DNA from: a virus
UHGV virus genome: UHGV-0124609
DNA length: 14,435 nt
Strand: one strand, 5' to 3'
The notes under the pieces were generated by a model that ran no database searches, was not told the origin of the DNA, and was given only the letters and a program-made list of their open reading frames with translations. The first letter of the stretch is position 1; every line of letters starts with the position of its first letter. Of the stretch, positions 4,135 to 14,435 are shown in pieces. Both the position numbers and the translations under genes were made by a program.

Positions 4135-4163
4135 TTGCACACCCCAACATAATAGGATACTAT
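4135..4163 (+). promoter_or_regulatory. promoter TTGCAC-N17-TACTAT driving the rightward early small-gene block
   Basis: -35 TTGCAC at 4135-4140, 17-bp spacer, -10 TACTAT at 4158-4163; identical hexamers and spacing recur at 5401-5429. The ATG at 4198 lies about 30 nt downstream. Confidence 0.5.
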
Positions 4164-4197: not shown

Positions 4198-4416
4198 ATG
4201 AACAAAGCGACCGCAAGCGTAGTTTCCGCAATCAAAGAAGTTTACGGCATCGATATTTCAGAGCGCGTAATCATCGGTAATAAGCGCAACTTCTTTACGT
4301 TCGACACCGACGGAATGGATGAAAATGATTTTATCAACGTACAACGTTTCGCTAATGATAGAGGGCTTCGTAACGAGCCTGCAGGTTACAAGAAATTCGC
4401 TATCTACTTTAAATAA
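4198..4416 (+). CDS. hypothetical protein, 72 aa
   Basis: Complete ORF; ATG 4198 preceded by a purine-rich leader (AACGAGACATAAGGAATTTAGAA); first gene downstream of the 4135-4163 promoter. Confidence 0.8.
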   Translation: MNKATASVVSAIKEVYGIDISERVIIGNKRNFFTFDTDGMDENDFINVQRFANDRGLRNEPAGYKKFAIYFK

Positions 4417-4434
4417 GACAGAGGAGTGATGGTT

Positions 4435-4623
4435 ATGTTTAAGAAGGGTCAGTTGGTCAAAGCTGTAAATAGCAATTATTTCATTGTTGAAAGCGAGTCT
4501 GCAGTTTTTCCGAGGGCTTATAGAGTAAGTTTTATACGGGAAAGATTAGGAGCGGTAACTTGGTTCCGTGAAGATGAGCTAACACTCATCGGCAACAATT
4601 TTAAATTCAAAGGGGCGAAGTGA
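4435..4623 (+). CDS. hypothetical protein, about 62 aa
   Basis: ORF 4426-4623 in the track; ATG 4435 is best placed relative to SD GAGGAG at 4421-4426 (8-nt spacer). Alternative in-frame starts are GTG 4426 and ATG 4429. Confidence 0.75.
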   Translation: MFKKGQLVKAVNSNYFIVESESAVFPRAYRVSFIRERLGAVTWFREDELTLIGNNFKFKGAK

Positions 4624-4877
4624 TGGAAGAATTAATTTGTATTGAATCTGGTCCAGATGTGCGGCATTGGTTTGTAAAAGGTAACAAGTATTCGTCAGGG
4701 GTATATTACGACGGCCGTCGATACGTTTTAGATGAAGACGGTGATGAATGGGACTTAGAGCAATCACATGGTGAAGCCTTTACCGTGAATTTCCTGGGCA
4801 CACCCGCCATAACATTCACAACGGCATCGAATCATGATGCTCGTGCCGATGACTCTGAGGGAGGTTGCCGTGGATAA
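4623..4877 (+). CDS. hypothetical protein, 84 aa
   Basis: ATG 4623 overlaps the upstream TGA stop (TGATG), indicating translational coupling; an AGGGG SD-like lies upstream. Confidence 0.75.
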   Translation: MEELICIESGPDVRHWFVKGNKYSSGVYYDGRRYVLDEDGDEWDLEQSHGEAFTVNFLGTPAITFTTASNHDARADDSEGGCRG

Positions 4878-4899
4878 TATTTTAATGGTGGAGGTTGAT

Positions 4900-5094
4900 A
4901 TGAGCCCGTATAACAAATTTCGCTTACGCCGTCTTGTTGGTGGTCTGCGCGCCGCCGAGTTTGGTGTTGAATGTTGGGAAAAGGCGAAATATACCCCATG
5001 GAAGTCGTGGCATTTGGTTCATGCTAAGGCGGTAGCACAGTACCGTGAGTACAAGTTAAACAGTTTCCTTAAGCACCACGGGGTTGAGTTATGA
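4900..5094 (+). CDS. hypothetical protein, 64 aa
   Basis: ATG 4900 with SD GGTGGAGG at 4887-4894 (5-nt spacer). In-frame alternative starts at GTG 4870 (SD GAGGGAGG), ATG 4885 and ATG 4834 cannot be excluded. Confidence 0.65.
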   Translation: MSPYNKFRLRRLVGGLRAAEFGVECWEKAKYTPWKSWHLVHAKAVAQYREYKLNSFLKHHGVEL

Positions 5095-5252
5095 GAGAAG
5101 CATTTGAACGGTGGGCCGTCGTAGAGGGTCTGCCGGTTAACAAGGGTTCGAAGAAAGAGTACCTGACCGTTAAGACACGTCTTGCGTGGCGGGCGTGGAA
5201 AGCTGGTGTGCAATTTCGTGCTGGTGTAACAGGTGGTGTAACAGGTCAATAG
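5091..5252 (+). CDS. small hypothetical protein, 53 aa (not in the ORF track)
   Basis: ATG 5091 overlaps the upstream stop (ATGA); frame open to TAG at 5250-5252. Translation MREAFERWAVVEGLPVNKGSKKEYLTVKTRLAWRAWKAGVQFRAGVTGGVTGQ; the C-terminal GVTGGVTG comes from a tandem repeat. Confidence 0.5.
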   Translation: MREAFERWAVVEGLPVNKGSKKEYLTVKTRLAWRAWKAGVQFRAGVTGGVTGQ

Positions 5253-5274
5253 GTTACTATTTGTCTTTGTGTCT

Positions 5275-5333
5275 TACGCTGCTACACAGCAGCGTACAAC
5301 TTTAACTTAGTGTCGTCAAAAGGCGACACTTTT
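5275..5333 (+). terminator. pair of stem-loops after the first early-gene block; the second is followed by TTT(T)
   Basis: Hairpin 1: 9-bp perfect stem at 5275-5283/5288-5296 with a 4-nt loop and no U-tract. Hairpin 2: 7-bp stem at 5309-5315/5324-5330 with an 8-nt loop, followed by TTT at 5331-5333. Confidence 0.35.
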
Positions 5334-5400
5334 CACCAAACGCAACAATCGAAGCGACTATTGCAGGAGATGCAACAATACAAACACCAATAAAATTTAC

Positions 5401-5429
5401 TTGCACACTGGGATAGAATAGACTACTAT
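5401..5429 (+). promoter_or_regulatory. promoter TTGCAC-N17-TACTAT with an AT-rich upstream element
   Basis: -35 TTGCAC at 5401-5406, 17-bp spacer, -10 TACTAT at 5424-5429; AT-rich CCAATAAAATTTAC immediately upstream; ATG at 5461 lies 32 nt downstream. Confidence 0.55.
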
Positions 5430-5460
5430 TCATTTACACGAACGAGAGGATAGACAGAAG

Positions 5461-5610
5461 ATGGTTACTTTGATGATTATGGAATTCGAAAACAGCGCTG
5501 CAACTTACCGCGAGATGACTATGGCGCAGGCGTACCATCTGGCATCAAACGGCAGCTTCTACAAGGCTCAAATCATCAATGAGTTCGGGGTAATTGACTA
5601 TGAATTTTAG
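5461..5610 (+). CDS. small hypothetical protein, 49 aa (not in the ORF track)
   Basis: ATG 5461 preceded by the leader AACGAGAGGATAGACAGAAG; frame open to TAG at 5608-5610; its 3' end overlaps the start of the next gene. Confidence 0.55.
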   Translation: MVTLMIMEFENSAATYREMTMAQAYHLASNGSFYKAQIINEFGVIDYEF

Positions 5611-5872
5611 AAGATACACCGTTACCGTTGATTTTGAGGGGCTGGATTTGCCCCTCCCCAACAACTACCGGTATATAACCCGTGACCGTTTCGGGTTTAT
5701 TCAGGGGTGGCGTAACAAGCCGACAGACACTGAGTTCGGGATGTCGGGTGGTGAAGAGTTGCCGATCACGTTCGGGCACCAAAGTAGTAACGAAGAGCTT
5801 AAAACTGTGATTCGTAAGTATCGTCGCCGGGGTAAAACTGAACTTATCGCAATAACAGGCGCTGTTGAATAA
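5600..5872 (+). CDS. hypothetical protein, 90 aa
   Basis: ORF 5594-5872 in the track (TTG); the first ATG is at 5600 with a GGGG SD-like upstream. Confidence 0.75.
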   Translation: MNFRRYTVTVDFEGLDLPLPNNYRYITRDRFGFIQGWRNKPTDTEFGMSGGEELPITFGHQSSNEELKTVIRKYRRRGKTELIAITGAVE

Positions 5873-5891
5873 ACGAGAGGAGAGACGGAAG

Positions 5892-6320
5892 ATGAGTAAC
5901 AAAAACGAAGTATTCGAGTACCTGATTGACCAGCTACGGCAGCAGGTAAATAAGAAAGATGTGACATCTTTCAATGTATCTGTGCAGATATCCGACCTTG
6001 ATGAGGTCAAGCAGGTAGTCCACAACCTACAGCAGCATATCGCAGGTAAGGATGACGAAATACGTGCGCTGAAAGACAGTTTACGGCAGCAGGTAAATAA
6101 CAACCAGTGCGAAGACCTGGCGCATGAGGTGCAGTCACTTAAGAATCAGTTACGTGATGCGTCGGCGCTGGTGGCTGAGTTGCAGAAAGAACTTGATGTC
6201 GCGAATAGCACCGTAGCTCGTTTGAGTAAAGAGGGGGTACAGAGGTGCAACCATGTTTGGTACAGGTACAACTTAGGCGGCTACACTAAGATGTGCCTTA
6301 AATGCGGGCTAAAGAAATGA
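5892..6320 (+). CDS. coiled-coil protein with a C-terminal Cys/His cluster (putative zinc ribbon), 142 aa
   Basis: ATG 5892 preceded by AACGAGAGGAGAGACGGAAG (the track's longer form starts at TTG 5865 inside the previous gene). Translation is heptad-like and Q/L/K/E-rich, with a repeated LRQQVN segment and C-terminal CNHVWYRYNLGGYTKMCLKCG. Confidence 0.8.
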   Translation: MSNKNEVFEYLIDQLRQQVNKKDVTSFNVSVQISDLDEVKQVVHNLQQHIAGKDDEIRALKDSLRQQVNNNQCEDLAHEVQSLKNQLRDASALVAELQKELDVANSTVARLSKEGVQRCNHVWYRYNLGGYTKMCLKCGLKK

Positions 6321-6520
6321 CCAGCATCTTATTTATCTGGGTACTGGCCGCGGGCCATATGCACCTAGCGGCAACAGAAACGTTTTACTCGATGGAGGCG
6401 TGCCAGTCAGCGGCACGCGCCGCGGAGAACGCGCACTTTCTGTTTCAGGGTGACAAGCCCAACGATTCAGAGGTACGCGCTATCTGCTCACCTAAGCGAC
6501 TTAGCAAACAGGAGAAGTGA
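6302..6520 (+). CDS. small protein with an N-terminal hydrophobic segment (signal peptide or membrane anchor), 72 aa
   Basis: ORF in the track; N-terminus MRAKEMTSILFIWVLAAGHMHLAA has a positively charged n-region followed by a hydrophobic stretch. Alternative start ATG 6317 overlaps the upstream stop (ATGA). Confidence 0.7.
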   Translation: MRAKEMTSILFIWVLAAGHMHLAATETFYSMEACQSAARAAENAHFLFQGDKPNDSEVRAICSPKRLSKQEK

Positions 6521-6522
6521 TT

Positions 6523-6774
6523 ATGGTTGTACGATATGACTTAACAGAAGATTTTGCGGGTACAGTAGATATAACGCCTGTCCCGGACTCGCATGAAGGA
6601 CGTTATGTAAGCTACGAAGATTACGCGAAACTCGAAGCCGAACTTCTGGAAATAAAAGCTGCAGCCCGTTGTCTTGTGCGAGAAGCGAGTAAGGTGTATA
6701 GCGATTATAGTGACGTTATAGCGCCTGAGTTTGTAGACCAGCAAACCATATACGAACTGGGCATTCTGCTATGA
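6523..6774 (+). CDS. hypothetical acidic protein, 83 aa
   Basis: ATG 6523 with SD AGGAG at 6510-6514 (8-nt spacer); the track's longer form starts at GTG 6517. Confidence 0.75.
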   Translation: MVVRYDLTEDFAGTVDITPVPDSHEGRYVSYEDYAKLEAELLEIKAAARCLVREASKVYSDYSDVIAPEFVDQQTIYELGILL

Positions 6775-7064
6775 GCCTCGCAACGGACATCCTGGAACGA
6801 AGCGGCCTTGCGCCGCTGGCACCGAGAGCTAAAACACGGATACACAAGCGTCGCCGTAACGCGCTGTACCCTGAGATTCAGGCCAGACGCAAAGCGGTAC
6901 GCGCCTGTGGATTCCAGAACGGGAAGGCTGTGAACCTCGGTGAGTTTAAAACGCAGGAGCGCGCTGCAATCGCTAATCGGTTATTTAATTACTGGAAATC
7001 GCTGGGATACGATGATATCCCGACGAAACCACAGAGGCGACAATACATCTGGCGTCATAAATAA
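6771..7064 (+). CDS. hypothetical basic protein, possibly DNA-binding (weak AP2-like pattern), 97 aa
   Basis: ATG 6771 overlaps the upstream stop (ATGA). Basic N-terminus (KTRIHKRRRN) and the segment GFQNGKAVNLGEFKTQERAAIANRLFNYWKSLGY are consistent with an AP2-like fold; this is a pattern guess only. Confidence 0.7.
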   Translation: MSLATDILERSGLAPLAPRAKTRIHKRRRNALYPEIQARRKAVRACGFQNGKAVNLGEFKTQERAAIANRLFNYWKSLGYDDIPTKPQRRQYIWRHK

Positions 7065-7139
7065 ACCGTTATTAGGATAATTCCTACCCGTGGTATCCTC
7101 CAGTTACTGCATACTTAATACGCACCTGGAGGATTCATC

Positions 7140-7448
7140 TTGGATAAATTTACTGAAACAGTGACGGGGTGGCTTCTCGCTGCCGCACTAGCCGGAGGGG
7201 TAATCGGGCTACGACAACATAAGTCCGTTATTTCAGGCCCAATAGACGGCTTCTGCTTTATTGCAACAGGCTTCACCTGCGCCGTATTTGGTGCACCTCT
7301 TGCGGCCCAATGGTTTGGCATCACGGGCGACCGTGAAATCGCAGGCCTGGGCTTCATTATCGCTATTCTCTGGATGCCTATCTATTCCCGCCTTTCTGGC
7401 ATCGTCGCCGGAGAATACATCGCACGTCGAGGAGGCCCGGATGAATGA
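7140..7448 (+). CDS. holin-like membrane protein (three predicted TM segments, charged C-terminus), 102 aa, TTG start
   Basis: TTG 7140 with SD GGAGGA at 7128-7133 (6-nt spacer) and no in-frame ATG nearby. Hydrophobic segments WLLAAALAGGVIGL, FCFIATGFTCAVFGAPLAAQWFGI and IAGLGFIIAILWMPIY; lies immediately upstream of the endolysin. Confidence 0.7.
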   Translation: MDKFTETVTGWLLAAALAGGVIGLRQHKSVISGPIDGFCFIATGFTCAVFGAPLAAQWFGITGDREIAGLGFIIAILWMPIYSRLSGIVAGEYIARRGGPDE

Positions 7449-7713
7449 GTTATTCTGGTTCGGCGGTATGCTGGCAATCGGAGGCACATCGCTGTTTAAT
7501 GTATACCACTCCAGCGTTGACGACGGACTATTTGGTAGGGTGCTCTATATCCTGACCGCTATTGTCTGTGCCGCCGGATGTATCCACCTGTTACAGGGCA
7601 GCATGTCGCCCACGCTGCCAGAGACATTAATCACATTAGTTGCGCTGCGTCAGATTCGCCAGGCGTGGCTGGCATACGGAGGACATAAGCGTGTCTCGAA
7701 ACATTTCAGATAA
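7441..7713 (+). CDS. second holin-like/antiholin-like membrane protein (at least two TM segments), 90 aa
   Basis: ATG 7441 with SD GGAGG at 7431-7435 (5-nt spacer), overlapping the upstream stop (ATGAATGA). Hydrophobic segments LFWFGGMLAIGGTSLF and VLYILTAIVCAAGCIHLL; basic C-terminus. The track's 7261-7713 ORF is an upstream extension in another gene's coding region. Confidence 0.7.
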   Translation: MNELFWFGGMLAIGGTSLFNVYHSSVDDGLFGRVLYILTAIVCAAGCIHLLQGSMSPTLPETLITLVALRQIRQAWLAYGGHKRVSKHFR

Positions 7714-8179
7714 TGGGCTGCATTTCACCGCCGCATTTGAGGGGTTCCGGGGAACTGCGTATCGCGCTACGCCGAACGAAAAGTACCTGACTATCGGGTA
7801 CGGTCACTACGGCCCAGACGTAACACCCGGTAAGACCATCACACCGGGGCAGGGCCTCCTGTTACTGAATCGCGATATGGCTAAGGCCGTGGCTGCGGGT
7901 GATGCAGCAGCGCACCATTCGCTGACACAGGCGCAGTTCGACGCGGTGTGTGACCTGGTCTATAACGCGGGTGCTGGTGTGATTGGGGTTAATACTGGCA
8001 CGGGTAAGGCGCTGCGTTCTGGTGATATTGCGACGCTGCGTGCTAAGCTGGCGCTGTTTATCAACCAGAACGGCAAACCGCTACTAGGCCTGCGTCGCCG
8101 TACTGCGGGTCGGCTGGCGCTGTTCGACGGTAAACCGTGGCAGGAGGCTGAGGCTATTGGGCGCGCGGTGAAAGGTTGA
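7691..8179 (+). CDS. endolysin, phage lysozyme (GH24 / T4-lysozyme-like family), about 162 aa
   Basis: Translation contains the family hallmarks FEGFRGTAY and TIGYGHYG. GTG 7691 has SD GGAGG at 7678-7682 (8-nt spacer); the track's form starts at TTG 7640 with no SD. The gene overlaps the preceding holin-like gene by 23 nt. Confidence 0.9.
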   Translation: MSRNISDNGLHFTAAFEGFRGTAYRATPNEKYLTIGYGHYGPDVTPGKTITPGQGLLLLNRDMAKAVAAGDAAAHHSLTQAQFDAVCDLVYNAGAGVIGVNTGTGKALRSGDIATLRAKLALFINQNGKPLLGLRRRTAGRLALFDGKPWQEAEAIGRAVKG

Positions 8180-8245
8180 CACCTAAGACCAATCCGACGA
8201 TACTTAAATCACCTCCTGCTCCATCCCTCTGCTCTCCAGTTTTAT

Positions 8246-8277
8246 CCCGGCCCTGACCCAGCCGGGATTTTTTTTTA
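8246..8277 (+). terminator. strong rho-independent terminator after the lysis cassette
   Basis: Stem CCCGGC/GCCGGG at 8246-8251/8261-8266 with a 9-nt loop, followed by ATTTTTTTTTAT. Confidence 0.75.
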
Positions 8278-8298
8278 TCTATTTTCTGTAATGACTAG

Positions 8299-8328
8299 TT
8301 GACTATTACCTACGACCCTACTATATTT
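8299..8328 (+). promoter_or_regulatory. sigma70-like promoter (TTGACT-N18-TATATT) for the 8361-10328 block
   Basis: -35 TTGACT at 8299-8304, -10 TATATT at 8323-8328; the AACGAGA leader motif at 8339-8345 and ATG 8361 follow. Confidence 0.5.
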
Positions 8329-8360
8329 ACTTCGCCGACAACGAGAACGGGGTAGAGAAG

Positions 8361-8510
8361 ATGAAAATCACAGATACCGAAGCATTCAAAGACGCACAAC
8401 TGATGGCACGCATCGCCGTTAGTAACCTGAGCAACAGCATTCCGGCGGACGCGTTCTGGTTCGCTGCGATGCAGACACTGAAAGCAGCTTATGCAGGAGA
8501 GAAGAAATGA
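8361..8510 (+). CDS. small hypothetical protein, 49 aa (not in the ORF track)
   Basis: ATG 8361 preceded by AACGAGAACGGGGTAGAGAAG; open to TGA at 8508-8510, overlapping the next start (ATGA). Translation MKITDTEAFKDAQLMARIAVSNLSNSIPADAFWFAAMQTLKAAYAGEKK. Confidence 0.55.
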   Translation: MKITDTEAFKDAQLMARIAVSNLSNSIPADAFWFAAMQTLKAAYAGEKK

Positions 8511-8704
8511 AAGTTAAAGCCACTAAAATTCTCTGGTTAGCCGCCCTTGACTATGTCACAGAGGGTAAAGTGTATGATGTATACAACCCGACAGCTACTG
8601 GTTTCGGTTATATAGACTCCGACGACGACTGCCATATTTTCATAGACTTTGGTAACGATGACGGTGATGGTTTCCACGGCGTTAAATGGGAGGTTGTAGA
8701 ATGA
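8507..8704 (+). CDS. hypothetical acidic protein, 65 aa
   Basis: Complete ORF in the track; its start overlaps the upstream stop and its stop overlaps the next start (ATGA at both ends). Confidence 0.75.
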   Translation: MKVKATKILWLAALDYVTEGKVYDVYNPTATGFGYIDSDDDCHIFIDFGNDDGDGFHGVKWEVVE

Positions 8705-8862
8705 GTGAACAAGGCCCAATAAACCAACCATTACGAGTAGGTCGTAAAGTCAACCACACCCCGTTCCCGACACGTGAGGAACTGATGAAACGCAACAGTT
8801 TTCCGGGGCCGGACAAGAACAAGTATCTAAATCGCATGTGGGGAGAGCGTAAAAATGACTGA
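8701..8862 (+). CDS. small hypothetical protein, 53 aa (not in the ORF track)
   Basis: ATG 8701 overlaps the upstream stop (ATGA); open to TGA at 8860-8862, overlapping the next gene by 8 nt. Translation MSEQGPINQPLRVGRKVNHTPFPTREELMKRNSFPGPDKNKYLNRMWGERKND. Confidence 0.55.
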   Translation: MSEQGPINQPLRVGRKVNHTPFPTREELMKRNSFPGPDKNKYLNRMWGERKND

Positions 8863-9079
8863 CCGAGACTATGAAAAGATGATGGTAGAGGCCGTTAACA
8901 GCGGCGTAGACATTAGCTACGTGATGCACGTCCTGAATACTAAAATCGCGGTAGCCGAGCAAATAGTTGAGTCGCTTTACGAGACACGCCGTGAACTAAT
9001 TAACCGCTTCAACCTGAACAAAGGTGGCACCAATGCCATCGACACCGACAAAATTCCGGACCTGAACCTGGAGGATTAA
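8855..9079 (+). CDS. hypothetical protein, 74 aa
   Basis: Complete ORF in the track; ATG 8855 preceded by the purine-rich GGGGAGAGCGTAAAA. Confidence 0.7.
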   Translation: MTDRDYEKMMVEAVNSGVDISYVMHVLNTKIAVAEQIVESLYETRRELINRFNLNKGGTNAIDTDKIPDLNLED

Positions 9080-9084
9080 CAAAA

Positions 9085-9384
9085 ATGAGTAGTAGCACAT
9101 TAGATAAAATTGAAAAAATGCAGGTCATCCTGCGAAATATGAAATCAGACATTAAGCGACAGGACCGGTTGAATTCAATAAACAGAATGGAACTAACTAC
9201 GAAGCAAGCGCAGAAGCGCAATGCTGAAGCGGCATGGATAGCAATGGAACAGATTAAGCGCCGTCATGAATTGCATGCCTTGTCTGTTGAGTTGGGGTTT
9301 GCAGAACGAAGGGATGATTATAGCGCAATAGAGTTAACTGACGGATGGCATTGCTTTACTTACAAACCAAGAGAGCCAGATTGA
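9085..9384 (+). CDS. hypothetical protein, 99 aa
   Basis: ATG 9085 with SD GGAGGA (CTGGAGGATTAACAAAAATG). Confidence 0.75.
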   Translation: MSSSTLDKIEKMQVILRNMKSDIKRQDRLNSINRMELTTKQAQKRNAEAAWIAMEQIKRRHELHALSVELGFAERRDDYSAIELTDGWHCFTYKPREPD

Positions 9385-9483
9385 GCCACAAGAAATTTGC
9401 AATTAGCCGTGAGCACGCCGCCGTAGTGGCCGACGATATACGAGAAACGGCGTGGCTTGGTGATGGGATAGTGGGGTGATTAT

Positions 9484-9654
9484 ATGTTCAGTGACATCAA
9501 CGCAGCAATAGAAGAAGCAATCTGGCGTCGCTACAACGGCGAACAGCAACGGCACTTCTGCCTGGTGCAACGGGGTAACATGATTGCTGTAGTGCAGGAC
9601 CGCGACAACAAATATCCGAATGCGATGTGGACAACGAGGAATTTCTTAGGATGA
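9484..9654 (+). CDS. small hypothetical protein, 56 aa (not in the ORF track)
   Basis: ATG 9484 preceded by GGGGTGA; open to TGA at 9652-9654, which overlaps the next start (ATGA). Translation MFSDINAAIEEAIWRRYNGEQQRHFCLVQRGNMIAVVQDRDNKYPNAMWTTRNFLG. Confidence 0.5.
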   Translation: MFSDINAAIEEAIWRRYNGEQQRHFCLVQRGNMIAVVQDRDNKYPNAMWTTRNFLG

Positions 9655-9887
9655 TTACCAGCATCCCAAACCTGATTAAAGAATACGGCACGATGGCCGA
9701 GACATGCCGACAAACCGGCATCAACGAAATGACGATTGCGAAGTACAGCAAAGACGTGAATTGCGAGCGCCACGTAATTTATAACAACCGTCTTATGACG
9801 CACGTTAAGACAAGTCCGGTGTTATTCACGCGCCGTGGTATCACTAAAACTGAGCAACGCATTGCTAAAGAGGAGAGCGGGGGATGA
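9651..9887 (+). CDS. hypothetical protein with a possible helix-turn-helix segment, 78 aa
   Basis: ATG 9651 coupled to the upstream stop; the track's form starts at GTG 9627. The segment MAETCRQTGINEMTIAKY looks HTH-like; this is a weak inference. Confidence 0.7.
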   Translation: MITSIPNLIKEYGTMAETCRQTGINEMTIAKYSKDVNCERHVIYNNRLMTHVKTSPVLFTRRGITKTEQRIAKEESGG

Positions 9888-10066
9888 TTGATATTTTGAA
9901 AGTTACAAATGCCGTTGGCTGCCTGGTGTTTTGGTTGGCGTTTCTCGGTGTGCTGATAAAACAACCGACTTTGTTTAACAGTCTTCCTAGTTATCTGTGG
10001 TGGCCTATGTTTTTAGGCATGGTTGTATCAGGCGTGGCGGGCATCCTTTTGTGGTTTTTCAAATGA
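9884..10066 (+). CDS. small integral membrane protein (two predicted TM segments), 60 aa
   Basis: ATG 9884 overlaps the upstream stop (ATGA), with SD AGGAGAG upstream. Hydrophobic segments AVGCLVFWLAFLGVLI and YLWWPMFLGMVVSGVAGILLWFF. Confidence 0.7.
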   Translation: MIDILKVTNAVGCLVFWLAFLGVLIKQPTLFNSLPSYLWWPMFLGMVVSGVAGILLWFFK

Positions 10067-10178
10067 GATTACTAATAATACCTAACGCCTGGGTTATCGC
10101 TGTAGCTAACGACCATTACGGTGGCGACGGTAAAAGAGCACAACGACACGGCCTATATAACTGATTGGAGAGTGAAAA

Positions 10179-10328
10179 ATGATTGAATTTGATGATGTTT
10201 TATTTGAGAAATATAACGGAAGGGTGTTTTTGACTGTGATGTACGGTGTTTACTCAAAGTCCTTTGACGGGTTTTCGAAAGCAGATTGTATAAATCAACT
10301 ACTATCGTGGGTCGCAAGACGCAAATAA
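10179..10328 (+). CDS. small hypothetical protein, 49 aa (not in the ORF track)
   Basis: ATG 10179 with SD GGAG at 10167-10170 (8-nt spacer); open to TAA at 10326-10328, immediately followed by a terminator. Confidence 0.5.
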   Translation: MIEFDDVLFEKYNGRVFLTVMYGVYSKSFDGFSKADCINQLLSWVARRK

Positions 10329-10337
10329 CCAATAACA

Positions 10338-10362
10338 AGCCCTCTACGGAGGGCTTTTCTGT
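10338..10362 (+). terminator. rho-independent terminator (AAGCCCTC-TACG-GAGGGCTT then TTCT)
   Basis: 8-bp perfect stem at 10338-10345/10350-10357, 4-nt loop, then a T-rich tail. Confidence 0.65.
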
Positions 10363-10389
10363 ACATCCCACCCAATCCACTTATATAAT
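10360..10389 (+). promoter_or_regulatory. candidate promoter for the packaging operon (TGTACA-N18-TATAAT)
   Basis: Consensus -10 TATAAT at 10384-10389; weak -35 TGTACA at 10360-10365. A palindrome follows immediately downstream. Confidence 0.4.
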
Positions 10390-10395
10390 CCCTTT

Positions 10396-10414
10396 AGACG
10401 CGTAGGGCGCGTCT
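10396..10414. promoter_or_regulatory. perfect inverted repeat AGACGCG-N5-CGCGTCT between the promoter and the terS start; candidate operator or 5'-UTR hairpin
   Basis: 7-bp arms at 10396-10402 and 10408-10414 with a 5-bp spacer; a third direct AGACGC half-site lies at 10432-10437. Confidence 0.4.
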
Positions 10415-10454
10415 GGTGCGCTCTGATGGTCAGACGCATATGCAAGGGGATTCT

Positions 10455-11000
10455 ATGAAGCTGAAACTCAAGCAGCCATCGCCAGAGGTGGTGCAAGCTG
10501 CACATGAAGAAGCTGTTAGCGCAAACCGTCGCCGTAAACGACCGCGCGGTAAACAGAGCCTTTATCAATCGTCCCGTAACTCCGCTGCGCTGTGGGACCC
10601 GGACTATTGCGACGAATTGATTAGTTTCTTTGACCGCACGTCATGGGAACTTGTGCCCACGTCTAAGGGTGACGAACGTCCGCTGATTCAGGATAAGCCA
10701 CCATCTCTGGCCCGCTTTGCCTTACACATCGGCGTCACTATCCCTATTATCAAGCTGTGGCTGCGTGAGATTCCCGCATTTGCAGAAGCCTGGGAGACCG
10801 CACAGGCGCTTGAAGAGGCGTACTTCACTGAGACCGGGGCCGCAGGCATCTCGGCTACGTTCGCTGCCGCGAAACTTGGCCTTGGCAAAGAGAAACCGGT
10901 TGAATCCACCGAAGAAACAGCACCAACCGAGATTATTTTTAGTGTTGCGGAGCCTGTAGGTAAAATCGTAACAACGAATATGGGCGAGGTAGAGGAATGA
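10455..11000 (+). CDS. terS: terminase small subunit (putative), 181 aa
   Basis: Lies immediately upstream of the large terminase subunit, with its stop overlapping the terL start (ATGA). The role is inferred from position, size and a basic N-terminus (RRRKRPRGK) ahead of an alpha-helical DNA-binding-like region. ATG 10455 has an AGGGGA SD-like upstream; the track's form starts at GTG 10416, and ATG 10440 is also in frame. Confidence 0.75.
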   Translation: MKLKLKQPSPEVVQAAHEEAVSANRRRKRPRGKQSLYQSSRNSAALWDPDYCDELISFFDRTSWELVPTSKGDERPLIQDKPPSLARFALHIGVTIPIIKLWLREIPAFAEAWETAQALEEAYFTETGAAGISATFAAAKLGLGKEKPVESTEETAPTEIIFSVAEPVGKIVTTNMGEVEE

Positions 11001-12247
11001 GTATTCAGCTATCCGCACCACAGGCACTGTTCCTGAATTGCGATAACAAATACAAAGCCTATGTTGGAGGCTTCGGAAGCGGCAAGACATTTGTCGGCTG
11101 TCTGGACCTGCTTACGTTTATGCTCAAGCACCCCGGTACGCGCCTGGGCTACTTCGGCCCGACCTATCCCGCCATCCGTGACATCTTCTACCCAACATTC
11201 GAGGAAGCGGCTAACCTGCTCGGCCTTGATGTGCTGGTTAAATCCGGCGACAAAGAAGTCGTGGTTACTCGCGGTAAGACGGTGCTCGGGACCGTTATCT
11301 GCCGCTCTATGGATAACCCCGGCTCGATTGTGGGTTTCAAAATCGCCGCAGCATGCGTGGATGAGCTGGACGTATTGAGTCGTGAGAAAGCTGAGCTGGC
11401 GTGGAACAAAATTGTGGCCCGTATGCGTCTGGTTATCCCAGGTGTAACTAACCACATCTCCGTTACCACGACGCCGGAAGGGTTCAAGTTCGTCTACGCC
11501 AAGTTCAAGGAGAACCCGACACCGAGTTACTCGATGGTGCAGGCTTCCACACATGAGAACGCGCGATTCCTGCCGCCGGATTACATTAGCTCGCTGACTG
11601 AGACTTACCCAGCACAGTTGATTAACGCGTATCTGAACGGTGAGTTCGTTAACCTGACCTCCGGCAGCGTGTATTACGCATACGACCGCCGTAAGCACCG
11701 CAGCAAAGAGACAATTCAACCGGGAGACACTTTGTACATCGGGCAGGACTTCAACGTTACGAAGAACGCCAGCGCTGTGTATGTGCAGCGTAAAGACGGC
11801 TGGCATGCGGTGGCTGAACTGAAAGGCCTGTTTGATACGCCAGACACCGTGCGCGTAATTACTGAGAAGTGGAAGTCACAAGGCCACCGCATCGTTGTTT
11901 ACCCGGACGCCAGCGGCAAGAACCGCAAGACAAACTCGGCATCAATCTCAGATATTGCATTACTCCAGCAGGCCGGGTTCGATGTTCGCGCTAAATCCGC
12001 CAACCCCCCGGTTAAAGACCGTGTTTTAGCGGTGAATACCGCGCTGGAAAAAGGTAAGCTGTGGGTTAATGACCACCTATGTCCTGAGATAGCGAAGACG
12101 CTGGAGCAGCAGGCATACGACGATAACGGAGAGCCAGCTAAAGACGGCGTCATTGACCATATGGCGGACGCTCTAGGCTATCCTGTAGTTTACGAGATGC
12201 CGGTGGTTAAACCAGTAATCAACATCCCGGTGACTTTCGCACTTTAA
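10997..12247 (+). CDS. terL: terminase large subunit (ATPase plus nuclease), 416 aa
   Basis: Walker A motif GGFGSGKT near the N-terminus and Walker B-like AAACVDELD; C-terminal half carries conserved Asp residues (IGQDFN, VYPDASG, DGVIDHMADAL) consistent with an RNase-H-like nuclease domain. Confidence 0.9.
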   Translation: MSIQLSAPQALFLNCDNKYKAYVGGFGSGKTFVGCLDLLTFMLKHPGTRLGYFGPTYPAIRDIFYPTFEEAANLLGLDVLVKSGDKEVVVTRGKTVLGTVICRSMDNPGSIVGFKIAAACVDELDVLSREKAELAWNKIVARMRLVIPGVTNHISVTTTPEGFKFVYAKFKENPTPSYSMVQASTHENARFLPPDYISSLTETYPAQLINAYLNGEFVNLTSGSVYYAYDRRKHRSKETIQPGDTLYIGQDFNVTKNASAVYVQRKDGWHAVAELKGLFDTPDTVRVITEKWKSQGHRIVVYPDASGKNRKTNSASISDIALLQQAGFDVRAKSANPPVKDRVLAVNTALEKGKLWVNDHLCPEIAKTLEQQAYDDNGEPAKDGVIDHMADALGYPVVYEMPVVKPVINIPVTFAL

Positions 12248-12259
12248 GAGGATTATTCA

Positions 12260-13741
12260 ATGTTAACTATGAACGGTCAGAATCAGGGTGTTAAGACCAA
12301 ACACCGGGAATGGCTGCATCACTTCGATAAATGGCAGAAGGTGCGACACGCCCTAGAGGGTGACCTTATTCGCTATCTCCGTAATGTTGGGAAGAACGAG
12401 CCTGACCCGGCCTACGCAGCACAGCGCCAGGAAGAATACGAGAACGGTGCTATTTGCTACAACTTCACTAAACGTACCCTGGCAGGGATGGTCGGTAGTG
12501 TCATGCGCAAAGACCCTGAGCAGATTATCCCACCTGAACTGGAGTACCTGTTACATAACGCTGATGGTTCCGGTGTCGGGCTGTGGCAGCACGCGCAGGA
12601 TACGCTGATGGAGATTGACTCAGTGGGTCGTGGCGGGTTGCTGGTGGACGCGCCGGAGACAGCCGCGGCAACTGCGGCAGAACAGAACGCAGGGTTATTA
12701 AACCCGGTCATCGCATTCTACACCGCAGAGAACATCATCAACTGGCGACTGACACGCATCGGTTCAGTTAACCGCGTGACGATGGTCGTGCTGCGTGAGG
12801 TATGGGAATACTCAGAACCGGGCGCAGAGTTCGAAACAAAGTTCGGCGAGCAATACCGTGTCCTTGACCTGATTGACGGTCGCTACCGTCAGCGCATTTA
12901 CCGCTTCGATGCCGAAGGTGGTGCTCAGGGTGGAGTAATCGAAATCTTCCCGAAACTAGGCGAACAGTTACGCGGCAAAATCCCGTTCACGTTCATTGGG
13001 GCGAGCAACAACGACGCCACTATCGACGATGCACCTTTGCTACCGTTGGCCGAGCTAAACATAGGGCACTTCAGAAATTCGGCTGATGTGGAAGAGGCCA
13101 GCTTTATAGTAGGCCAACCGACACTGTTCATTGCCCCCGGCGAGAATATGAGCATGGAGCAATGGAAAGAAGCCAACCCCCACGGCATCCGCATGGGGTC
13201 GCGTTCAGGGCATAACATCGGCTCCGGTGGCAATGCGTTTCTGGTTCAGGCGGCGGAAACTAACCTCGCCAAGCAGAACATGCTGGATAAAGAGAATCAG
13301 GCCATCCAGATTGGCGCGCAGCTTATTACTCCGACGCAGCAAATCACCGCAGAATCGGCCCGCCTGCAACGCGGCGCTGATACGTCAGTTATGGCGACAA
13401 TCGCACGTAACGTAAGCATGGCGTATACCGATGCATTGCGCTGGGTGGCTGCGATGCTTGGATTGCGCGAGGGAACAGAGATTGAGTTCAAACTGAACAT
13501 GGAGTTCTTCCTGCAGCCCATGACCGCTCAGGACCGTGCACAGTGGATGGCGGATATCAACGCTGGCCTGTTACCGGCTACTGCTTATTACGCGGCATTG
13601 CGTAAGGCGGGGGTGACTGACTGGACCGACGAGGATATCCAGAACGCTATCGAAGACGCGCCGCTGCCGTTAAGTGCTGTTACTCAGGTGGCAGGAGAGA
13701 TTCCGCAGTCGGCGCAGCAACAACAGGAAGCCGCCCAGTAG
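12260..13741 (+). CDS. putative portal protein, 493 aa
   Basis: Large ORF directly downstream of terL and upstream of a head-morphogenesis gene, which is the canonical order. ATG 12260 with SD AAGAGGA (7-nt spacer). The assignment rests on synteny and size; no specific motif was recognised. Confidence 0.7.
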   Translation: MLTMNGQNQGVKTKHREWLHHFDKWQKVRHALEGDLIRYLRNVGKNEPDPAYAAQRQEEYENGAICYNFTKRTLAGMVGSVMRKDPEQIIPPELEYLLHNADGSGVGLWQHAQDTLMEIDSVGRGGLLVDAPETAAATAAEQNAGLLNPVIAFYTAENIINWRLTRIGSVNRVTMVVLREVWEYSEPGAEFETKFGEQYRVLDLIDGRYRQRIYRFDAEGGAQGGVIEIFPKLGEQLRGKIPFTFIGASNNDATIDDAPLLPLAELNIGHFRNSADVEEASFIVGQPTLFIAPGENMSMEQWKEANPHGIRMGSRSGHNIGSGGNAFLVQAAETNLAKQNMLDKENQAIQIGAQLITPTQQITAESARLQRGADTSVMATIARNVSMAYTDALRWVAAMLGLREGTEIEFKLNMEFFLQPMTAQDRAQWMADINAGLLPATAYYAALRKAGVTDWTDEDIQNAIEDAPLPLSAVTQVAGEIPQSAQQQQEAAQ

Positions 13742-13754
13742 TAAGTTCACATAT

Positions 13755-13776
13755 AGCCCCGAAAGGGGCTTTCTTA
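13755..13776 (+). terminator. stem-loop AGCCCC-GAAA-GGGGCT followed by a T-rich tail after the portal gene; possible partial terminator or attenuator
   Basis: 6-bp GC stem at 13755-13760/13765-13770 with a GAAA tetraloop, then TTCTTAT. Confidence 0.45.
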
Positions 13777-13813
13777 TAGTATGCTATTAACTTTAGCACC
13801 ACAGGGTTTATCT

Positions 13814-14435
13814 ATGAGCTTACTTACATCCCTAATCAGCCACCAGATTTGGCTGCAACGCACCGCATCCGGTGAAGTGAAAGACCTCGCACCGTTCATT
13901 AAGGAGATGCGGGACGAAATCAAACGGCAGGTGCTGCTGTTTGGTGACGACGGGCGCAGCACTGCGCGACTGAATAAACTGTTACGCGACCTCGAAGAAG
14001 CACTGACAGGACTTACTGGTGACTGGCAAACAAAGCTGACAGAAGACCTCAAGGAACTGGCGGCGTATGAGGCCGAGTGGAACGCAAAGACCCTTACCGC
14101 CAACGTGAATGCGGAATTTGTTACACCTACCGCCGAACAGGTGTGGGCTGCCGCTGAGTTTCAACCCTTATCGTTAAGCGACAAGCCTGTTGACTTCACG
14201 AAGCTGATGTCGGGCTGGGGCGAAACCGAAGTCGCGCGCCTTGTAACCGGCGTTAAGATGGGCTTTGTACAAGGCCAAACCACACGGCAGATTGTTAAGA
14301 ATGTCGTAGGCGCTGGTGGCCTGGCCGACATCTCTGAACGTAACGCTGCGACGGTAATCCGCACCGCGCTATCTCACGTGTCCAACGAAGCCCGTAACGA
14401 GACGTACCGCCAGAACGACGACATCATCGAGAAAT
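13814..14435 (+). CDS. head morphogenesis / minor head protein (Mu gpF-like or SPP1 gp7-like), partial, continuing past the window end
   Basis: Frame open from ATG 13814 to the window edge (207 codons); an in-frame alternative ATG lies at 13781. Position after the portal gene and the alpha-helical N-terminus are consistent with the gpF-like family; this is not motif-confirmed. Confidence 0.75.
   Translation, partial: MSLLTSLISHQIWLQRTASGEVKDLAPFIKEMRDEIKRQVLLFGDDGRSTARLNKLLRDLEEALTGLTGDWQTKLTEDLKELAAYEAEWNAKTLTANVNAEFVTPTAEQVWAAAEFQPLSLSDKPVDFTKLMSGWGETEVARLVTGVKMGFVQGQTTRQIVKNVVGAGGLADISERNAATVIRTALSHVSNEARNETYRQNDDIIEK

Follow-up and report, generated by a model that had tools for sequence, protein, structure and literature searches.

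A conserved two-hairpin element in front of the small-terminase gene of a Kagunavirus and its relatives is very probably a structured leader RNA

In the virus genome UHGV-0124609, the packaging genes are preceded by a short intergenic region that carries a palindrome next to a promoter-like hexamer. We analysed this region within a stretch of 14,435 nt (14.4 kb; hereafter the window), which comes from a lytic siphovirus that infects E. coli and belongs to Kagunavirus (Guernseyvirinae). A megablast search with positions 9800–11200 returned 178 phage records at 80–95% identity. Small rightward genes span the region from ~4198 to 10328, ahead of terS, the gene for the small terminase subunit, and the following features lie at the junction:

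10337–10361, plus strand: intrinsic terminator of the upstream (early/middle) block, found by inverted-repeat search and folding; stem AAGCCCTC/GAGGGCTT, loop TACG, then TTTTC
10360–10365, plus strand: -35-like hexamer TGTACA, 18 nt 5' of the -10 hexamer (promoter scan)
10383–10395, plus strand: 5' strand of P1, a putative closing helix, with the sequence ATATAATCCCTTT; a candidate anti-Shine-Dalgarno strand that overlaps the -10 hexamer and the discriminator
10384–10389, plus strand: -10 hexamer TATAAT of the predicted terS (packaging-operon) promoter
10396, plus strand: predicted transcription start, an A, seventh base after the -10 hexamer and first base of hairpin H1 (promoter geometry)
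10396–10414, plus strand: hairpin H1, perfect 7-bp arms AGACGCG (10396–10402) and CGCGTCT (10408–10414) around a 5-nt loop, TAGGG
10416–10439, plus strand: hairpin H2, GTGCG-C-TCTGA/TCAGA-CGCAT with loop TGG (folding)
10444–10456, plus strand: 3' strand of P1, AAGGGGATTCTAT, comprising the Shine-Dalgarno (SD) sequence AAGGGG (10444–49), a spacer and the start of the AUG
10455–11000, plus strand: terS, 181 aa from ATG 10455; phrog_3064 'terminase' (E = 1e-72) and relatives' annotations

The arms of the terminator hairpin occupy 10337–56 and are followed directly by TTTTC, and the stem covaries in relatives (e.g. AGCCCGC/GCGGGCT). A consensus terminator scan listed this hairpin on the minus strand only, and its plus-strand reading rests on the TTTTC tail. 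The TGTACA and TATAAT hexamers match the promoter consensus at 10 of 12 positions, and the promoter is predicted to be of the sigma-70 type. The initial annotation had placed TATAAT at 10384–10389, which we confirmed. This hexamer reads TA[T/C]AAT in every lineage examined, down to ~28–33% TerS identity, while its spacer and flanks diverge. Similarly, TTTTCTGTACA at the -35 position is kept in Kaguna- and Jersey-type sequences with a diverging spacer, and the Dhillonvirus version has an extended -10, TGTTATAAT. In all lineages, H1 begins 5–10 nt past the -10 hexamer (10 nt in the lineage L063), and in the window it begins at the predicted +1, A10396; H1 is therefore predicted to be 5'-terminal in the promoter-initiated transcript.

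The perfect inverted repeat AGACGCG-N5-CGCGTCT at 10396–10414 and the AGACGC at 10432–10437, upstream of terS, are also present as annotated. However, the AGACGC had been described as a third half-site, and we found it to be the 3' arm of H2, a hairpin that covaries independently of H1; the same position reads ATACGC in Jerseyvirus and is occupied by wholly different sequences in more distant relatives. The two hairpins are separated by a single base, G10415, and the apex of H2 carries a conserved GATGGTC (10425–10431). An 80-nt RNA starting at 10396 folds as H1 plus H2 with the ribosome-binding site (RBS) open (-28.4 kcal/mol, z = -2.75). Taken alone, the palindrome is statistically unremarkable. 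The scan for additional AGACGCG sites that had been proposed gave 4 copies in the window against 2.7 expected, which is not an enrichment, and AGACGC occurs 12 times. First-order Markov simulations predict ~6 perfect hairpins with 7-bp arms and 3–8-nt loops per 14.4-kb window, and 16 (raw count, at ~11 distinct places) were observed. By contrast, the conservation and covariation of the element across relatives exceed chance, and we consider it very probable that 10396–10439 is the template of a conserved leader that acts as structured RNA.

A 141-nt intergenic query (10330–10470) retrieved 373 records of the Kaguna/Jersey type, with identities of 95–99% in Kagunavirus and ~72–78% in Jerseyvirus, and 154 records carry the Dhillonvirus type (at least 90% identity). 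Distant loci were found with a TerS protein search (homologs at 57–61% identity), after which the contigs were fetched, and by tblastn with TerS on phage genomes, where the relatives at ~28–34% identity were Dhillonvirus, Eiauvirus and the GRNsp27/St162 group. In all distant relatives found, the layout is kept: terminator, TA[T/C]AAT, 5–10 nt, H1, 1–5 nt, H2, SD, ATG. It was seen in Jerseyvirus, the GRNsp27/St162 group, Dhillonvirus and Eiauvirus (TerS identity down to ~28–33%). A covariance model trained on Kaguna and Jersey sequences only had its top match just 5' of terS in L064, L065, L066, L068, L069 (Dhillonvirus), L070 (Eiauvirus) and L071-73. Its E-values in distant loci ranged from 5e-11 to 0.05, with L063 as the sole weak match. 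Neither the palindrome nor the two-hairpin element was found a second time in the window or in the 42-kb genome of the relative L055 (vB_EcoS-Ro145clw), using both a pattern search with up to 3 mismatches and the covariance model. A cmscan of 10200–10600 on both strands against Rfam 15, with E up to 10, gave nothing overlapping 10396–10439; elsewhere in this interval it returned weak chance matches (at most 18.7 bits, against gathering scores of 33–55).

Three observations in relatives touch on the same motifs. In L055, a weak covariance-model match (17 bits, E = 0.06) lies at 31382–31423, inside an annotated coding sequence, with GATGGTC at 31407. In the early region of the same genome (30030–30039) there is a 10-bp perfect palindrome with the same half-site, AGACGCGTCT, which is missing from the window and is thus probably coincidental. 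L056 (Salmonella phage SGP009) and L057 (SE126_1PISJ) are mosaics at ~330–430, in which the promoter and spacer are of the Kagunavirus type and the leader and terS of the Jerseyvirus type; the breakpoint lies between the -10 hexamer and H1, and the H1 loop of L056 is 1 nt shorter.

The hairpins are kept in relatives by pairing. Among 24 distinct Kaguna/Jersey sequences, 99.3% of cells were paired, and each one-sided change gave a G-U pair on the plus strand. The change of TCTGA to TATGA in the Jerseyvirus H2, opposite ATACGC, is a swap of a C-G for an A-U pair. Over longer distances the arms turn over. H1 stems in relatives include AGTCGCUC/GGGCGACU, GCCCCC/GGGGGC, AGAUGGC/GCCGUCU, GGCGGGCC/GGUCCGCC and GAGGUGCGC/GCGCGUCUC, the last of which contains two adjacent wobble pairs; two adjacent G-U/U-G pairs are required in the H1 of the GRNsp27 type. 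For the inner stem of H2 we found UCUGA, UAUGA, GCCGA, GGAGA, UGGA and CAGG, every time with the matching partner. In an alignment of 15 sequences, 96.8% of cells were paired, 12 of 17 pairs showed compensatory changes, and there were 29 extra pair types; none of 500 shuffles reached any of five covariation measures, and controls with slid partners were 24–50% paired. Alignments made with MAFFT only agree with this picture, giving compensatory changes in 6 of 10 pairs for H2 alone and in 2 of 7 pairs, plus G-U pairs, for H1 alone. The loops are less variable: that of H1 is YAGGG in most lineages, and the H2 apex G-A-[Y-G-G]-U-C is invariant in 15 of the 16 lineages examined, the exception being L063 with GG-UGG-CC. 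In 14 of 16 sequences the plus-strand RNA is more stable than the minus-strand RNA (means -19.8 vs -16.8 kcal/mol). A minus-strand RNA was rejected on this ground, and the sequence comparison indicates that the structure is selected on a single strand, specifically the sense strand. We also rejected an attenuator-type alternative in which the 3' arms of the two hairpins pair with each other; this pairing is not conserved in Jerseyvirus. Of the roles initially suggested for the palindrome, a 5'-untranslated-region hairpin controlling the packaging operon is the one that gains support, since H1 and H2 covary with many plus-strand G-U pairs and start at the predicted +1.

This pattern bears directly on another suggested role, in which a dimeric regulator of late genes would bind the palindrome as a DNA operator. 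The operator would have its centre near +10 of the terS promoter, with AGACGC 10432 as an auxiliary half-site. Its appeal lies in a perfect dyad that is positioned like lacO1 relative to the predicted +1, and in an HTH_3 protein encoded by the phage (770–985 in the window). We nevertheless regard it as very improbable. The pairing is kept while the half-site sequence is not, reading AGTCGC, GCCCCC, GGCGGGC, AGATGGC, etc. in relatives, and in several of them G-T replaces the Watson-Crick symmetry; the half-sites are unequal in L057, the spacer is 1 nt shorter in L056, and the supposed third half-site is ATACGC in Jerseyvirus. The turnover of the arms, the G-U pairs and the irregularities in L056 and L057 also speak against recognition as double-stranded DNA of any kind. 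Moreover, no further operator copy was found in the 42-kb relative genome with 3 mismatches allowed, and the early and other promoters are associated with a different dyad, ATAGT-N4-CTAT.

The latter motif, often extended to AATAGT...CTATT, occurs at five intergenic promoter-like sites (682–693, 4152–4163, 5249–5260, 5418–5429 and 13776–13787), compared with ~0.5 expected in the window by simple counting. L055 has at least 10 copies, and the terS promoter has none. It matches the 'phage promoter' consensus obtained with PHIRE for Kagunavirus fBC-Eco01 (PMC9825357), and may serve as an operator or a promoter element, perhaps one used by the HTH_3 protein.

Another explanation for a conserved sequence at this place is that the region is, or overlaps, a packaging initiation site (pac), where the small terminase would recognise DNA (e.g. 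the GATGGTC core) and make the first headful cut nearby. The element is indeed single-copy, lies immediately 5' of terS and co-occurs with this TerS family; residues 47–126 of TerS, the part conserved in distant relatives, look like a helix-turn-helix by sequence, and P1-like headful packaging with pac initiation was reported for Jerseyvirus K47 (PMC10783031). Still, recognition of double-stranded DNA explains neither the covariation of 12 of 17 pairs, in arms that turn over fully, nor the G-T 'pairs', which would be A-C on the opposite strand. In contrast to boxes of the pac type, only the 7-nt GATGGTC core is invariant while the arms covary. Arms of 7–10 bp are generally held to be too short for stable cruciforms, and the phased repeats typical of TerS sites were not found at the locus. 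With regard to genome ends, a PhageTerm analysis of Kagunavirus fBC-Eco01 gave no obvious termini (PMC9825357), and of 36 metagenome contigs that match H1 exactly, none starts or ends there. GenBank records that begin near the site do so by annotation convention. Overall, we find a pac function of the region unlikely. Physical genome ends at the palindrome were rejected as well: the records ending or beginning at ~10412–10415 or ~10444 start at the annotated terS coding sequence or 10/50 nt upstream of it. One contig with the exact palindrome, L091 (JAEHJW020001854.1), has a length of 87.5 kb, roughly double that of a Kagunavirus genome, and may be a concatemer-type assembly or represent a different genomic context.

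A structured leader RNA, the reading we prefer, has a further feature upstream of H1. Positions 10383–95 (AUAUAAUCCCUUU) are 85% complementary to 10444–56 (AAGGGGAUUCUAU), and the 5' strand of this putative helix P1 overlaps the -10 hexamer, upstream of the predicted +1, so that it would be present in read-through RNA and absent from promoter-initiated RNA. At minimum free energy, the long RNA is predicted to adopt a three-way junction in which the SD and the AUG are buried (-53.3 kcal/mol, z = -4.0), and a consensus fold gives the same result. In 9 of 16 lineages, pairing of the -10 region with the RBS is stronger than in shuffled sequences (p ≤ 0.05); the P1 of L055 reaches 15 contiguous bp (-17.9 kcal/mol). 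Mean predicted accessibility of the RBS is 0.36 in the long RNA vs 0.63 in the RNA from +1. Compared with composition-matched shuffles, the natural 30-nt upstream extension lowered accessibility in 13 of 15 lineages (means 0.38 vs 0.51; Wilcoxon p ~0.001, for lineages that are not independent).

The mechanism we favour combines protection of the 5' end with gating of the RBS, and we would hold it to be about evenly balanced between right and wrong. A sigma-70-type promoter (TGTACA, 18 nt, TATAAT) just past the terminator of the upstream block would start transcription at A10396, and the first 44 nt of the terS-terL-portal transcript would form H1 and H2, leaving the SD (10444–49) and the AUG (10455) single-stranded. 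H1 would then be 5'-terminal, with no unpaired 5' nucleotides, and could block the decay by RppH and RNase E that depends on the 5' end; capped in this way, the packaging mRNA would be stabilised. H2, with its invariant GA-YGG-UC apex, probably binds an additional partner. In read-through RNA, 10383–95 would instead pair with 10444–56. This pairing would enclose H1 and H2 in a three-way junction and mask the RBS, and terminase would be translated from promoter-initiated RNA only. We infer the transcription start, the stability effect and the translational gating from the features described above.

Several points weigh against this scheme. The -35 element is poor (TGTACA), and the 5'-terminal position of H1 is a prediction that rests on promoter geometry. 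Little or no P1 is seen in eiAU, the GRNsp27 group and L057, and within Kagunavirus its 5' strand is variable in the CCCT part. As for the covariation itself, the 15-sequence alignment was fitted to the model structure and, given that the lineages are related, the shuffle statistics suggest more independence than there is. Finally, a pure stabiliser needs no conserved loops such as YAGGG and GA-YGG-UC, which means that something sequence-specific is unaccounted for.

There are three possible in-frame starts for terS, GTG 10416, ATG 10440 and ATG 10455, and only the last, with its SD AAGGGG, is conserved in relatives. ATG 10440 is replaced by AAG or ACG in close relatives. Among distant relatives, GTG 10416 is in some cases not in the terS frame and in others starts no more than a short open reading frame (ORF). 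From this comparison, ATG 10455 is most likely the true start. This is relevant to annotation, as many GenBank records begin terS at a GTG or ATG inside H2 (from GTG 10416 in many cases, giving a 194-aa form), while conservation favours the downstream ATG. A RUG codon at the 5' base of H2 (GTG 10416 in the window) lies 6–9 nt 3' of the SD-like AGGG of the H1 loop. This codon is not in the terS frame in L064 and L065, and in GRNsp27, WFI and L068 it opens an ORF of 8–9 codons ending just 5' of the terS SD. This pattern may reflect mis-annotated starts or a short, coupled upstream ORF. At the H2 apex, AUG 10426 begins an ORF of 10 codons that ends in a TGA overlapping the terS ATG (ATGA); the Jerseyvirus version stops after 5 codons, so the layout is not conserved. 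An upstream ORF or an N-terminal extension from GTG 10416 or the apex ATG 10426 was rejected as an explanation for the element, because the frame and stop position vary among relatives. In addition, GAUGGUC is invariant even at third codon positions, and this suggests a constraint on nucleic acid rather than on peptide.

The conserved loops indicate that some partner probably reads H1 and H2, and this leads to an alternative in which the stems merely present the loops: an RNA operator for a specific factor, either a phage protein such as TerS, in autogenous control of terminase synthesis, or RNA polymerase, as in the put elements of phage HK022. In support of it, the loop and apex sequences are kept where the stems have turned over completely and TerS is only ~30% identical, and the element is inherited along with this terS family; like putL, it has two stem-loops starting within a few nt of +1 (PMC9378689). 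Beyond this arrangement, there is no similarity to put in sequence or structure, the covariance model having no relevant match in the 40.7-kb HK022 genome, and the element measures 44 nt vs ~73 nt for put. The sequence does not allow a binding partner to be named. The loops also lack GGA. CsrA sites carry a GGA motif, as is generally known, and a CsrA-type function of the H1 and H2 loops was rejected for this reason. A further difficulty for a put-like role is the extent of the operon, which continues from terS as follows:

10997–12247, plus strand: terL, large terminase subunit, with Terminase_6N and Terminase_6C domains
12260–13741, plus strand: portal-type structural gene (DUF4055)
13755–13776, plus strand: terminator-like hairpin AGCCCCGAAAGGGGCT (the hairpin itself at 13755–13770), then TTCTT

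The hairpin at 13755 is likely the 3' end of the terS-terL-portal operon. It is followed, within 13755–13830, by an ATAGT-N4-CTAT motif and by an SPP1 gp7-family head gene (ATG 13815). With a terminator-like hairpin and this motif after the portal gene, terS-terL-portal looks like a discrete operon of ~3.3 kb and not like the head of a long late transcript, so that a need for processive antitermination is doubtful. We are accordingly doubtful of the RNA-operator explanation as a whole. We likewise consider it unlikely that the element is a previously undescribed phage RNA in which the packaging machinery or RNA polymerase reads the invariant loops YAGGG and GA-YGG-UC. If it were, TerS binding to its own leader RNA would couple terminase synthesis to packaging, or a compact put-like RNA would reprogramme the host polymerase for late transcription, and either kind of loop reading would hold across Guernseyvirinae, Dhillonvirus and Eiauvirus. 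The leader mechanism would be surprising only if the loop-reading partner were the terminase or RNA polymerase.

Our search of the literature on promoters, transcription starts and the pac position in Kagunavirus, Jerseyvirus and Guernseyvirinae returned the packaging mode only, with no coordinates, and found no description of the two-hairpin element. What began as an isolated palindrome becomes a defined and well-supported candidate RNA element in three parts, namely an anti-SD strand embedded in the promoter, a hairpin at the predicted 5' end and a second hairpin whose apex is invariant. It is common to hundreds of sequenced coliphages and to Salmonella phages used in therapy and biocontrol collections. 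The leader belongs to known functional kinds, namely 5' protective hairpins and promoter-dependent RBS gating. What is new is its architecture, in which a three-way junction with invariant loops incorporates the promoter, and its breadth, covering Guernseyvirinae, Dhillonvirus and Eiauvirus.

By position, the closest parallels are SPP1 pac and lambda cos, which sit just 5' of the small-terminase gene. The element resembles them in lying immediately 5' of terS, in being present in one copy per genome and in containing inverted repeats. It differs in that those sites are recognised as double-stranded DNA via conserved, often repeated boxes, whereas the arms of the leader turn over and their complementarity, including G-U pairs, is preserved. 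In structure, it is reminiscent of the E. coli ompA 5' untranslated region, where a 5'-terminal stem-loop (hp1), a second hairpin and a single-stranded RBS reportedly protect the mRNA against RNase E and RppH, in work attributed to Emory, Bouvet and Belasco in 1992 and to Arnold, Yu and Belasco in 1998. Both have two hairpins followed by an open RBS, and H1 begins at the predicted first nucleotide, with a gap of 5–10 nt from the -10 hexamer. There is no sequence homology to ompA, however, the leader is 59 nt here vs 133 nt, and the conserved loops of the terS leader suggest an extra, specific interaction.

Among phage RNAs, HK022 putL and putR are also cis-acting elements of two stem-loops, which make the polymerase resistant to pausing and termination, and the pairing of putL begins at +3 of the PL transcript (PMC9378689). 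They are longer, with bulged stems and a triple helix, and occur twice per genome, while the terS leader is single-copy and precedes a short operon. The nearest relative of the gating step is found in phage T4, where the RBS of genes e, soc, 49 and I-TevI is sequestered in early read-through RNA and freed in transcripts from a late promoter, which is itself embedded in the 5' strand of the sequestering stem (PMC3014915). As in gene e, the segment complementary to the SD and AUG (10383–95) overlaps the -10 hexamer and discriminator, predicted RBS accessibility differs accordingly, and the gated gene has a late function that would be harmful if made early. The two systems differ in that T4 uses a gp55 late promoter, compared with a predicted sigma-70-like promoter here, and a simple stem, compared with strands ~50 nt apart that enclose two conserved hairpins in a three-way junction. 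The terS locus also has an intrinsic terminator upstream (10337–61), and its P1 is not detectable in every lineage. If the gating is true, the T4 strategy of promoter-dependent translation would also time the terminase in sigma-70-dependent siphophages.

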